Virus record (IMG/VR): IMGVR_UViG_3300020426_000016
Span: 1 to 35,345 of that record
Strand: one strand, 5' to 3'
Source: a virus
Lineage: Duplodnaviria > Caudoviricetes
DNA length: 35,345 bases
Made by a program: the position numbers and the translations under genes. How positions within the stretch are numbered: position 1 is the stretch's first letter; every line of letters begins with the position of its first letter. Under the pieces are notes generated by a model. The model saw only the letters and a program-made list of their open reading frames with translations. It did no database searches and had not been told where the DNA came from. Positions 10,784-23,501 of this stretch are shown here, in pieces.

Positions 10784-10993
10784 TTAGTTGGGTTCTGATG
10801 CTTCTTTCTCTTTTTGTCTTATAAAATGGAGCGTCTGGATTTCCTCTGCCCACTCTTCATCTGTTAGTTGTTTCGGGTCGATATGCATATAATAGCGTAA
10901 AAGACCATCGTACAACCGTATATTACACCCCTCTGCCACTTCAAATGCCGAGGTATCTTCGGTATCTATAACCGCCTCGGCTAAAGCTTTTTT
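10784..10993 (-). CDS. Tail assembly chaperone, -1 frameshift extension (gpGT-like)
   Basis: Slippery A AAA AAG at 10993-10987. The -1 frame is open for 67 codons (ALAEAVIDTED...YYMHIDPKQLTDEEWA...) to TAA at 10786-10784. Stem GCCGAGG/CCTCGGC starts 5 nt downstream. Confidence 0.8.
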   Translation of the reverse strand, partial: KKALAEAVIDTEDTSAFEVAEGCNIRLYDGLLRYYMHIDPKQLTDEEWAEEIQTLHFIRQKEKEASEPN

Positions 10994-16008: not shown

Positions 16009-16998
16009 TTAGTCTTTATGGCGAATTCCGGCCGCATAGCCTTTGGCCAGTTCAGCATACTTTTTAGGCTCTTCGTCACGGATACGACGAAGCTCTGTAG
16101 GATCGTTCTTTTGCAGGTAGTCATAGTTCAACTCGATGTTCGGTGATTTACCAGAGCCTTTACCGCTTAAAACAACCTCTCTCACGGTTTTACTACGGTC
16201 TTGCTGCTGAGCACTTCCTTCTTTTTCCTGGATCAATCGGGAAAGCACGGCTTTTTGTCCTTCGTGATCACTTTCGAATGCCTTTAACTGGCTTTCTTTA
16301 AGACCATCAGAGATAAGCCCCAGGGCAACCGCTTTATCGGTTAGCGTTTCCGCTTCCTGCTTATTGGCCTCATTGAGTTTTTCTTCCAACTTATTGGCCT
16401 TGTCATCGGCTTGTTGTTTGGCCAATTGCAGCTCTTTTACTTTTTGTAGAACTGATTCCGGTTTGCTGTCGGCTCCCATATCCAATGCGAGCGCAATAGA
16501 TTTCATATCCATATCACTGTGTATTTCTGGTTTTGATTTTAAGCGTTTAAGTTTGATGCGCTTGCCGTCTTTGGAAAGCTTCAGCGCATTGTCATTGCCC
16601 CCGATATCCACTATGGATATTTCGATAAGCTTGGAGGTAAGTACTGTTTCAAAGATTTGATTGGGTAAGGTGTGTTCGGGATCGGTAGAGGTTTCAATAA
16701 CATCGGCATTAATAGAAGCCATCCTTATAAAGCCTCTTGCTACTTTCCCCTCTATCCGTTTAGCGAACTTGTCTTCAACATCAAATTCCACTTCAGCAAT
16801 TAGTTGACCGTCTTTTTTAGAAAGATTGGTAACACGTCCAATAACTTCGTGACCCTTTGGACTGGACAGCCCACGATCGTGGATGTAATAGACTACAGGG
16901 TTACGCATAAACTGTACGGTATCGATACCGTCGGTCATCACCCTAAAACCGTATTCATTTACATTATTCTCGTCACTGACTATAAACGTGTGCTTCAT
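16009..16998 (-). CDS. Prohead protease/scaffold fusion
   Basis: Likely start MKHTFIVSDE at 16998; NEYGFRV, NPVVYYIH, IGR, GFIRMASI and EISIVDIGGNDNAL; coiled-coil scaffold C-terminus. Confidence 0.85.
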   Translation of the reverse strand: MKHTFIVSDENNVNEYGFRVMTDGIDTVQFMRNPVVYYIHDRGLSSPKGHEVIGRVTNLSKKDGQLIAEVEFDVEDKFAKRIEGKVARGFIRMASINADVIETSTDPEHTLPNQIFETVLTSKLIEISIVDIGGNDNALKLSKDGKRIKLKRLKSKPEIHSDMDMKSIALALDMGADSKPESVLQKVKELQLAKQQADDKANKLEEKLNEANKQEAETLTDKAVALGLISDGLKESQLKAFESDHEGQKAVLSRLIQEKEGSAQQQDRSKTVREVVLSGKGSGKSPNIELNYDYLQKNDPTELRRIRDEEPKKYAELAKGYAAGIRHKD

Positions 16999-17030
16999 GC
17001 TGGCGGATATTTTGTTTTGAATCCTGGGGG

Positions 17031-17162
17031 CAAATTTGGTTGGAAATGATGGCTGTAAAAAAAAACCGATCAAGCCTTGTACGATTTCCATACAAGACTT
17101 GTAGAAAAATCCCCAAGCCTTGATCAAGAATTACGCATAGCTCCAAGTGAACACGAAATTTG
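17031..17162. promoter_or_regulatory. Divergent late promoters with three CAAG-N-CTTG palindromes
   Basis: CAAGCCTTG (17071), CAAGACTTG (17093) and CAAGCCTTG (17114). Variant -7 boxes CAAATTTG (17038-17031, minus) and GAAATTTG (17155-17162, plus) are placed symmetrically about 17097. Confidence 0.65.
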
Positions 17163-20859: not shown

Positions 20860-20869
20860 GAAATTGATT

Positions 20870-22111
20870 ATGAGCAAGACCAGAGCCAATACCGTGAATT
20901 TATCCGGGAATGCAGTAAAGAAAGTAAGCCTTAGCGGCAATAAAGCCAAGGATATTCAAAAGGTAACCAATTTAATGGTCGATGTGGTACGCCGCCAGCG
21001 AAGACTTTGGCGAAAAGAAATAAACGACTGGCAGGCCGGAAGGTTTGCCCTGTACCATTCTGAACTTCCCCGAACCTATCCCATGCAGGAAGTTAACGAG
21101 GACATCATGCTCGATGGGCATCTAACAGGTATTACTGAAAACCGCACCCTTAGAACCACGAACAAGCAATATATTTTTGCCATTGATGGCATTAAGGATG
21201 ATAAACTGAGTGAATTTATTACCGATCAGGAGTGGTTTGAATTTATTACCGATGAAGCCCATAAATCAACCTATTACGGGTATTCTTTACTTTGGGTAAA
21301 AGAGTATGTACCTGGACAAATTAAAGAAGTGGAGCTTATCCCCAGGGGTTTGGTGATTCCTCAAAAAAAGGTATTGCTCTACAGCTACGATGCCGACCGT
21401 GGTATTGATTTTTCCGAGATTGACGATATCTTGATCTATGCGCAATTTTATGGCCATGTGGGGCTTTTGGAAAAAGCCGCACCATACGCCATTTTAAAAA
21501 GACATTCATGGGGTTCCTGGGATGAATTTGAGGAATTATTTGGAATTCCTATCCGTATCGCTAAAATAGCCTCACAAAGTGAAACCGTGAAGAATGAAGT
21601 AGCCGGATGGTTGGAAGATATGGGATCAGCTCCCTACGGTGTTTTTCCAATTGGCACCGAGGTCGACATTAAAGAAAACTCTAAAACAGATTCCTTTCAG
21701 GTTTTTTATAAGAAAATTGAAGCCCTGGACAAAGAGCTATCTAAATTGGTACTTCACCAAACCATGACCACTGAAAACGGAAGTTCCAAAGCTCAGGGCA
21801 GTGTTCATGAAAATACGCTCGGCGAAGTGGTTTATGCCGATGAAAAGAAAATGCTGGCATTTCTAAACCGTCGTTTGGTACCGGCTATGCGAAAGCTTGG
21901 TTATAACATCCCGGACAATGCAAAAATCATTGTAGAGAAAACAACTGATCCCAATAAACAAATCGATATCGATGGGGTACTACTTAAAAATGGGGTGAAG
22001 CTTAGTAAAAATTACATCGAGGAAACTTACGGCGTGGAAGTGGAAGCCATTACGGACAATGCTCCAGACCAGGACGAAGAAGAGGAAGAGGACACCACGG
22101 GAAAGCCCTAA
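20870..22111 (+). CDS. Portal protein (Mu gp29 / DUF935-like)
   Basis: DGHLTG, YYGYSL, WDEFEELFGIPIRIAK, ELSKLVLHQTMTT, SSKAQGSVHE and YIEETYGV; ATG at 20870. Confidence 0.9.
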   Translation: MSKTRANTVNLSGNAVKKVSLSGNKAKDIQKVTNLMVDVVRRQRRLWRKEINDWQAGRFALYHSELPRTYPMQEVNEDIMLDGHLTGITENRTLRTTNKQYIFAIDGIKDDKLSEFITDQEWFEFITDEAHKSTYYGYSLLWVKEYVPGQIKEVELIPRGLVIPQKKVLLYSYDADRGIDFSEIDDILIYAQFYGHVGLLEKAAPYAILKRHSWGSWDEFEELFGIPIRIAKIASQSETVKNEVAGWLEDMGSAPYGVFPIGTEVDIKENSKTDSFQVFYKKIEALDKELSKLVLHQTMTTENGSSKAQGSVHENTLGEVVYADEKKMLAFLNRRLVPAMRKLGYNIPDNAKIIVEKTTDPNKQIDIDGVLLKNGVKLSKNYIEETYGVEVEAITDNAPDQDEEEEEDTTGKP

Positions 22112-22138
22112 GCCTGCTAAGGTTGCATTATCGTAGCA
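22099..22138 (+). other. Candidate -1 programmed frameshift site joining portal to MuF
   Basis: G GGA AAG in the portal frame (22099-22105), just before the stop. The -1 frame (GCC CTA AGC CTG CTA AGG TTG CAT) runs without a stop into the MuF ORF. Possible hairpin TGCTA..TAGCA at 22115-22138. Confidence 0.7.
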
Positions 22139-23394
22139 AATGTTCCCATACTCCTACGATACAACTTGCAAAGCAAGACCAGCATTTTAGCGGGCTTATA
22201 GAGGAATATGTCAGGGAGCTTTTTGACGAGCGCCAATTATCTGAAGGTACCCGAAATAAACTTTGGCAGTATTATTATGATGAATTATCGGACGGGGTGG
22301 ATATTGGTTACTCCCCGGAACTGGAGCAATACGACCCGGAGCTTGCAGCCAGGTTAAAGTATAACATTGCCGAATTTTCCGCTTTTAAGGAAACCTCTTT
22401 TAAGAAACAACTGGAGGGACTCCTTACCAAAAACGGAAAAATACAGCCCTGGTCTACATTCAAGAAAGAAGCTTTAAAAGTATCCGGTGATTACAATGTA
22501 CGCTGGTTAAAAACAGAATATCACCAGACCGTTGCCACGGCAAACATGGCCGGAAAATGGAAAGATTTTGAAGCCAATAAAGACCTGTACCCGAATTTAA
22601 AGTATGTAACCGCCGGAGATAACCGGGTAAGGGAAGAACACCGCCAATGGGACGGACTGGTATTGCCTATTAATCATCCCTGGTGGGCTACGCATTTTCC
22701 GCCTCAGGATTGGGGCTGTAGATGTGGAGCCGTACAAACCGATGAAGAAGTGAGTACGGATATTCCAGGCGGTGAAGCTAAGAAAGGATTTGCGAACAAT
22801 GCCGGTTTATCCGGTGAAGTGTTTACCGATATTGCCTATAAAGATGGGCTTAGCGATACGGAAATCGACCAGGCAACGGCAACGGCCAATAGATTATTTA
22901 AACGGGATACCAGGCTTAAAGATTTCAAAACCTATAAGGATGATCCGGGATTTACCGATGTGAAATTCAACGAAGAAAACAGCGGTTTAAAAGCAACCCA
23001 TAAACTACATAATTTCGATAAGCGTACCGGTAAGTATGAAAAGCATGTACGGGATTTATTTTTTAACCAGGGCGATAAGATCGAGCTGGCCAAAGAGCTG
23101 GCCGCAAAAGGGGAAAAAGTTATTGAAGGCGTGAAGAAAGTAGACGGCTATCTAAACAATGCTTCCATCGATATCAGTTCTATTTTAGGAGAGGGAAAAA
23201 ATACGATCTCCAGGGCGTTAAAGCATTCCGCCGAAAAGCCGGCCGATGTGGCCATACTGTATTTCCCGGATGCAAGTAAATTTTCTATGAGTAGGCTTAT
23301 CACCGGAATTAAAAAATACGAGGGAAGGCATGACTTTAGGTTTCAAAAGATCATTTATATAGTAGATGACAAAATCAGGGAAATAAAGCCATAA
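22123..23394 (+). CDS. MuF (gpF) minor head protein with C-terminal CdiA-like PD-(D/E)xK toxin domain
   Basis: WLKTEY, YPNLKYVTAGDNRVREEH, HPWW..HFPPQDWGCRC = MuF. Extension with E...VDGYLN..SIDISSI...AILYF resembles CdiA C-terminal tRNase-type folds. Only a TTG start is available. Confidence 0.8.
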   Translation: MHYRSKCSHTPTIQLAKQDQHFSGLIEEYVRELFDERQLSEGTRNKLWQYYYDELSDGVDIGYSPELEQYDPELAARLKYNIAEFSAFKETSFKKQLEGLLTKNGKIQPWSTFKKEALKVSGDYNVRWLKTEYHQTVATANMAGKWKDFEANKDLYPNLKYVTAGDNRVREEHRQWDGLVLPINHPWWATHFPPQDWGCRCGAVQTDEEVSTDIPGGEAKKGFANNAGLSGEVFTDIAYKDGLSDTEIDQATATANRLFKRDTRLKDFKTYKDDPGFTDVKFNEENSGLKATHKLHNFDKRTGKYEKHVRDLFFNQGDKIELAKELAAKGEKVIEGVKKVDGYLNNASIDISSILGEGKNTISRALKHSAEKPADVAILYFPDASKFSMSRLITGIKKYEGRHDFRFQKIIYIVDDKIREIKP

Positions 23395-23465
23395 AAAAAC
23401 CGCCAACGGCTTAGAAAGCTTTTGGCGGTTGGAGCAATCCGCGGCAAAATGCCTACGGTCTGCAT
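23393..23465 (-). ncRNA. Putative small RNA: tRNA-acceptor-like minihelix + UCCA + terminator, convergent with muF
   Basis: The minus strand reads GCAGACCGUAGGCAUUUUGCCGCGGAUUGC-UCCA-ACCGCCAA...UUGGCGG-U7, directly downstream of TATATTTG (23476-23469). Confidence 0.6.
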
Positions 23466-23468
23466 TGG

Positions 23469-23501
23469 CAAATATACAAATAGTTTTAAATATCGTTGCA
23501 A
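23469..23501 (-). promoter_or_regulatory. Promoter for the minihelix RNA
   Basis: TATATTTG (23476-23469), with TTG at 23501-23499 (22-nt spacer). Confidence 0.6.

Follow-up and report, generated by a model that had tools for sequence, protein, structure and literature searches.

A predicted −1 ribosomal frameshift extending the portal protein into MuF in a marine Mu-like phage and its Bacteroidota relatives

The portal gene of a marine, Mu-like phage of the Bacteroidota type carries near its 3′ end the slippery heptamer G_GGA_AAG, which most probably (we put it at about 0.9) drives a programmed −1 ribosomal frameshift into the following gene, muF. An earlier note on this DNA had proposed that a portal-MuF-tail fusion of ~840 aa is made in this way, and the comparative data strongly support such a product. 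The evidence consists of the sequence anatomy of the junction, the constant placement of the site among relatives, the absence of a start for muF, and the lack of a tRNA-Lys(CUU) match in most of the host genomes searched.

The window, that is, the whole stretch of DNA analyzed, is a virus record of 35,345 bases. A Mu-type transposase, a transposition protein, a tail sheath, a head protease, and a major head protein are present in it, and its DNA has been found mostly in marine metagenome runs. The host is likely a flavobacterium, because the portals nearest to that of the window sit in prophages of Flavobacteriaceae and Weeksellaceae. On the plus strand the genes for small terminase, large terminase, a tail terminator-like protein, adaptor, neck, portal, and MuF lie in this order. 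The junction of the last two has the following features.

20864..22111, plus strand: Mu-type portal gene in the 0 frame (PF06074, E 3e-64; PHROG 113)
22009..23394, plus strand: open −1 frame with a linker (LSLLxLHY..CC), the MuF domain (PF04233) and a C-terminal tail; TTG 22123 is the start assigned by gene callers
22099..22105, plus strand: slippery heptamer G_GGA_AAG (X_XXY_YYZ), the predicted −1 shift site, one codon before the portal stop
22108..22121, plus strand: TAAGCCTRCT element around the portal stop, conserved at the level of codons, with restricted Leu/Ser codons and a possible 5-bp mini-hairpin

The portal likely starts at ATG 20870, its C-terminal tail is acidic and variable, and its 3′ end reads ACG GGA AAG CCC TAA with the stop codon at 22109-22111. 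As the earlier note had stated, the heptamer is in X_XXY_YYZ phase, and the −1 frame runs without a stop into muF: it opens at 22009 after two stops, reads GKALSLLRLHYR..., and ends at the stop 23392-23394. The MuF domain (E 1e-14) is thus encoded next to the portal. The same note was right that muF has a TTG as its nearby start and Met only far away, since TTG 22123, in frame and 11 nt past the portal stop, is the sole start in the vicinity, while the first ATG of this frame lies 437 nt downstream of that stop. Counted arithmetically from ATG 20870, the fusion would be ~841 aa long. A His/Cys-rich motif, HYRxxCC (22126-22145), is conserved in the linkers of frameshifted and many fused MuFs and absent from most ATG-started MuFs; it is a possible metal site.

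The predicted slip site in close relatives and in the wider family

Loci were pooled from 80 viral, 41 prophage, and 13 phage records. The 119 loci, window included, whose portal-profile score exceeded 400 bits formed 45 lineages at 90% portal identity. A canonical heptamer stands exactly 9 nt before the portal stop in 43 of the 45, and at the same position in 3/502 other ORFs of these loci, a difference in fixed position which excludes chance. The conservation that the earlier note had proposed to check is therefore present, and the phase between portal and muF is not random: it is the same −1 phase in 79 of the 80 viral loci, the remaining one being cut. Of the two lineages lacking the heptamer at this place, L185 is an in-frame fusion and L186 has a broken portal. 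In L186 the gene is broken upstream (L186:4195-4330) and the junction is otherwise intact; with its break inside the portal, this lineage is excluded from the 44 representatives considered below.

In these representatives the −1 frame starts with GGG AAA (20 cases), AAA AAA (23), or CCC CCA (1). At the wobble position preceding the site, the base equals the next two in 20/20 G_GGA and 23/23 A_AAA cases, against a background of 60/320 (19%) and 403/1112 (36%), respectively. The G_GGA_AAG and A_AAA_AAG forms are interleaved across a tree built by a quick method, on which the "short" labels of L001 and L018 denote cut contigs.

A non-canonical heptamer, C_CCC_CAG, was detected at the junction (AAC CCC CAG CAC TAA) in 21/62 loci of one Capnocytophaga-type cluster, namely L022, L177, and 19 related loci. 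Their muF is intact, has no nearby start codon, and is preceded by a −1 stop immediately before the site. These loci are masked in the cluster tallies given below, where the representative of their cluster reads A_AAA_AAA. They count against the rule of a canonical heptamer and possibly allow, at best, a single-tRNA slip on C_CCC.

How does the site relate to the tRNAs of the host? The tRNA-Lys(UUU) pattern was found in 18/18 host genomes and the CUU pattern in 2/18, and ARAGORN confirmed both findings; the genome of the L175 host matched neither pattern and is hence uninformative. The tRNA-Lys(CUU) match is thus absent from most hosts searched. Both CUU hosts are Capnocytophaga (L219 and L220, hosts of L177 and L176), and their prophages read A_AAA_AAA and C_CCC_CAG, not ..AAG. 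This is suggestive of a slip site matched to the host tRNA-Lys set; it concerns one lineage only, and L187 is a counterexample with A_AAA_AAA in the absence of CUU. In the genomes of the family the CUU pattern occurred in 2/151, one being the known positive and the other not tRNA-like, and tRNA-Lys(CUU) appears to be rare among the Flavobacteriaceae searched.

The structures downstream of the site were compared in the same set. The hairpin proposed earlier, 9 nt downstream (22115-22138), folds in the window (z −0.69), but only 40% of its cells are paired across the 44 relatives, no better than in slid controls, and we rejected it as a stimulator. A longer fold, 22106-22175, has z −3.4 in the window. 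The 60-nt windows 3′ of the site have a mean z of −0.3 and fall below −2 in 3/44 relatives; no conserved strong 3′ stimulator was found among the 44 representatives of the window clade. The mini-hairpin at TAAGCCTRCT, with 81% of cells paired and five cells changed on both sides, is a weak candidate for a stimulator and lies too near the site for the standard type. No Rfam family matched the junction. The slip site may need little help from structure.

To collect the wider family we searched 50% representatives, obtaining 150 MuF hits, of which 30 also matched the portal within one chain, and used three alignments of fused proteins as queries for further loci. From the resulting 373 loci we discarded 15 that did not have both domains; the other 358, grouped at 80% identity, gave 159 clusters, each scored on a single representative. 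Its queries skew this sample towards fusions. Among the clusters with a −1 overlap the heptamer is present in 110/111, where synonymous resampling predicts 36.3. Taken with the 43/45 against 3/502 and the 43/43 wobble matches, this conservation exceeds protein constraint. Where muF lies in frame 0 or +1 (eight clusters), it always has its own ATG.

In-frame portal-MuF fusions make up 60/358 loci. The linker heptamer is present in 40/40 fused clusters against 22.0 expected, and a −1 stop follows it. Windows of the same length in the portal body contain a heptamer in 30/202 cases, and the density is 76/2953 codons in linkers versus 49/13887 in the portal body. The fused-gene signal is tempered by the Lys-rich character of the linkers, 22 of the 40 hits being expected by chance. 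At the boundary of four fused genes with DNA (L185, L200, L201, and Porphyromonas phage010a) a heptamer is accompanied by a hairpin of −22 to −29 kcal and by a −1 stop that comes early; the gene of Porphyromonas phage010a is annotated as a single 852-aa portal. L185 is nested in the window clade, and the sole heptamer in its 678 codons is a G_GGA_AAG at the boundary with a hairpin of −28.6 kcal. The fused annotation together with a linker slip site and a −1 stop, a dnaX-like inverse polarity, is seen in L185, L200, L201, L204, and 36 further clusters. The cluster of L225 (L247) holds 18 fused loci and one with a −1 overlap, which may be a recent switch of polarity or an error.

Since the fused clusters keep the linker heptamer and the −1 stop, portal would be made in both a short and an extended form under either polarity. 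Stimulatory structures are present at T-rich sites (hairpins with a mean of −16.7 kcal) and at those of inverse polarity. For G_GGA_AAG the structure averages −5.3 (n=14) where a slip gives the long form and −18.5 (n=6) where it gives the short one, a pattern that we would expect if both layouts had to yield mainly short portal. An ATG lies within 25 nt of the portal stop in 12/111 −1 clusters, Hankyphage included, and separate initiation can coexist with frameshifting there. Five loci (L203, which is Hankyphage p00, L403, L416, L438, and L447) have T_TTT_TTC with a hairpin plus an ATG at the portal stop; their MuF may be both fused and free.

Nuclease-like tail and candidate RNA unit on the opposite strand

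The product of the −1 frame was modeled by AlphaFold with a mean pLDDT of 90.9 and a loose linker at residues 9-27. Its tail and the region behind it have the following features.

22984..23391, plus strand: C-terminal domain with a CdiA-CT tRNase-like (PD-(D/E)XK) fold
23393..23464, minus strand: predicted structured small RNA of ~70 nt with a U-tailed terminal hairpin; ends approximate, terminator-like site
23469..23476, minus strand: TATATTTG, a promoter-like motif matching the Bacteroidota −7 element TAnnTTTG

Model residues 296-431 match the CdiA-CT tRNase 4g6v with Z 11.9 and rmsd 3.2, the next match having 5.8; with Foldseek the best match was again 4g6v (3.5e-3), none reaching E<=0.001. 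PF18451 (CdiA_C tRNase) matches 15/17 aligned tails and is carried by 3/10 close homologues; the window tail has no match to it at E 0.1. In a by-eye alignment through the profile the window tail has E, D, and D of what we take to be the catalytic residues E, D, D, K, and the Lys position is Ala, with Arg and Lys adjacent. The tail is predicted to be a nuclease toxin that cuts RNA. The word "toxin" in the earlier note stands as a structural prediction from the CdiA-CT-like fold.

Several tail families occur on one MuF core, and the tails have been swapped freely. No immunity ORF was found downstream of muF in the window, and an adjacent ORF follows CdiA-like tails in 3/88 cases. The opposite strand bears a different candidate. 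TAnnTTTG is presumably the Bacteroidota −7 promoter consensus, and the sequence 23395-23475 folds with z −3.8. We scanned 200 distinct MuF ends for the motif 30-160 nt past the stop and found it behind 86/88 CdiA-like tails, 48/74 other tails, and 0/38 tail-less MuFs, counts that are not independent, as the CdiA class profile was partly built from the same tails and the loci are related. On the same strand the control gave 1 CdiA-like tail, 4 other tails, and 3 tail-less MuFs. The RNA-like sequences vary with the tail family, and in one tail family of 10 two-sided changes occur in 6/13 pairs; no Rfam family matched the small RNA. Its association with nuclease tails makes it a candidate RNA antitoxin, similar to type III. 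If real, it would explain how most nuclease-type MuF tails here do without an immunity gene.

Does the frameshift then serve mainly to hold down the toxin dose in the producing cell, as the earlier note had supposed in speaking of limiting free toxin? The missing immunity ORF speaks for this, and a weak site would keep the dose low. However, 13 tail-less MuFs (~265 aa) keep the slip site, the 40 clusters of inverse polarity make the long form by default, and a separate candidate neutralizer tracks the tails. Dose limitation is thus unlikely to be the reason for the site, and the frameshift probably serves MuF loading, because both the tail-less MuFs and the inverse-polarity clusters retain it.

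Possible routes into muF and the proposed role of the predicted fusion

The next question is whether muF could be translated without frameshifting. One possibility is coupled re-initiation at TTG 22123 or a near-cognate start, the heptamer being incidental. The TTG is suitably placed, in frame 11 nt after the stop, initiation in Bacteroidota does not require a Shine-Dalgarno sequence, and 8/159 relative clusters do have a separately started muF. Against this, all six Leu codons are found at the TTG position across the relatives, TTG itself in 5/44, and ATG stands there in 1/44; 32/44 representatives have no ATG, GTG, or TTG between −40 and +60 nt. In 21 loci the first Met falls at residue 34-306. 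Ahead of the TTG, the peptide encoded in the −1 frame is conserved in the 44 representatives, and re-initiation leaves the wobble covariation unexplained. By these comparisons muF is an open coding −1 frame that appears to have no conserved start codon of its own. This lack, combined with the conserved peptide upstream, disfavors a separate start, and we consider re-initiation highly improbable. Were the frameshift true, muF genes across Bacteroidota prophages would carry false annotated starts.

Equally improbable is slippage of RNA polymerase, by which an added base would let the mRNA be read normally into muF. It is known to substitute for frameshifting in T. thermophilus dnaX, according to the available text of PMC5009743, and runs of 7-10 A or T are present in many relatives. 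Yet the runs of the window are merely GGG and AAA, 20/44 relatives have G_GGA_AAG, and codon phase is always kept; it may play a part in the long-A relatives only. That muF is dead, or that the junction arose by misassembly or by recent mutation of a fused gene out of frame, we regard as practically negligible: in-frame fusions do exist (60/358 loci) and the L225 group holds both states, but contigs from five other runs, among which runs of one study may lack mutual independence, cover the junction free of indels or gaps, the identical predicted MuF protein occurs on 12 contigs, the phase is shared by the viral loci, and muF frames are intact.

Programmed frameshifting would operate as follows. 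The majority of ribosomes would terminate one codon past the heptamer and release a portal of 413 aa, and a minority would slip −1 into muF and make the portal-MuF-nuclease fusion. The tRNA-Gly and tRNA-Lys(UUU), paired with GGA AAG, would shift to GGG AAA with no strong hairpin to assist them, from which a low slip rate is expected. The extended subunits would co-assemble in the portal ring and, given the topology of the portal, bring MuF and its cargo into the head interior. A mixed portal ring may be the purpose, because the inverse-polarity relatives, with the fusion in frame and the short portal made by a slip, retain the signal. As long as MuF stayed covalently joined to the portal its ejection would be impeded, and this counts against a fusion. 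As a guess, the prohead protease could free MuF and its tail before ejection.

A possible protease motif, [ILVFMT]xL[SADNT], occurs in 88/159 linkers in an uncontrolled count and is a lead only. The head protease ORF (16009-17127, minus strand) contains an xKLSK stretch resembling xKLSK/xQLAK of MuF linkers, possibly a common cleavage motif, likewise uncontrolled.

All parts together would make up a broader scheme for Bacteroidota Mu-like phages: a −1 frameshift of two polarities giving mixed portal rings with MuF and a swappable RNase, a site tuned to the host tRNA-Lys, and a tail-specific opposite-strand small RNA replacing the immunity protein. We offer this whole tentatively, at slightly less than an even chance. 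If true, recoding would load the toxins of this polymorphic system and RNA would neutralize them.

Comparison with known systems

We found no description of a portal-MuF frameshift in the available texts of PMC5576092, PMC11699363, PMC4493119, PMC10367356, PMC8776804, and PMC6199706, nor in those of PMC5512222, PMC7302621, PMC5009743, PMC10885494, and PMC3711429; supplements or subscription literature could hold one. The portal as a recoding site is likewise not known from the accessible portions of the reviews searched, and the word "portal" is absent from the recoding text available from PMC5009743. Among the unannotated predictions of PRFect, as far as the available part of PMC10885494 goes, there are MuF-like genes, and the portal is not mentioned.

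The closest parallel is the tail chaperone G/GT of phage lambda, for which a passage on TP901-1 (PMC4493119, available part) gives a −1 frameshift at GGGAAAG. It shares with the window the heptamer, the position at the 3′ end of a gene, and short and extended products, and the window genome has a matching chaperone site.

10987..10993, minus strand: A_AAA_AAG in a likely tail-chaperone gene, followed by one codon and the stop; the −1 frame is open for 69 codons

The gene is likely a tail chaperone by its position between the tail tube and tape measure genes. No start for its −1 ORF lies close to the junction, and the layout, likely that of a G/GT frameshift, is as at the portal end. Unlike in lambda, the site of interest in the window is in the portal gene, and what it would append is MuF, a named protein family in its own right whose cargo varies.

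In E. coli G_GGA_AAG is shift-prone, and dnaX (tau/gamma) resembles our case in that AAG is read by a sole tRNA-Lys, both according to the available text of PMC5009743. The inverse-polarity relatives share the logic of dnaX, where a slip gives the short form; in contrast, a slip in the window would make the long form, and in its clade we found no strong hairpin that is conserved.

A frameshift-extended structural protein in the virion is also offered by phage A2, whose major head protein is reportedly extended by a −1 frameshift; there the subunit belongs to capsid or tail, not to the portal.

Portal and MuF in one polypeptide are described, in the parts available, for the single-ORF fusions of Microbacterium phages EA3/EA5/EA8/EB (PMC7302621) and for portal/MuF-PBECR fusions (PMC5512222). 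These texts present them as fixed and without recoding, whereas the 40 fused clusters analyzed here keep a slip site. If the frameshift is real, long "portal" annotations conceal two products.

MuF polymorphic toxins (PMC5576092; Bxa and Apk2, PMC11699363) have, in the available texts, muF directly after the portal, a conserved core, and a variable C-terminus, as here. The published MuF toxins and SPP1 gp7 are given there as separately translated, bound non-covalently to the portal, and accompanied by protein immunity genes. The window differs in that muF has no start codon and is followed by a small-RNA-like unit in place of an immunity ORF. For SPP1 gp7 the available part of PMC5576092 gives 1-2 copies bound to the portal, and a low copy number of the fusion at the portal vertex would by analogy fit this value. 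Beyond SPP1, the frameshift would offer a concrete answer to the question of how MuF and its toxins enter the phage head and in how many copies.
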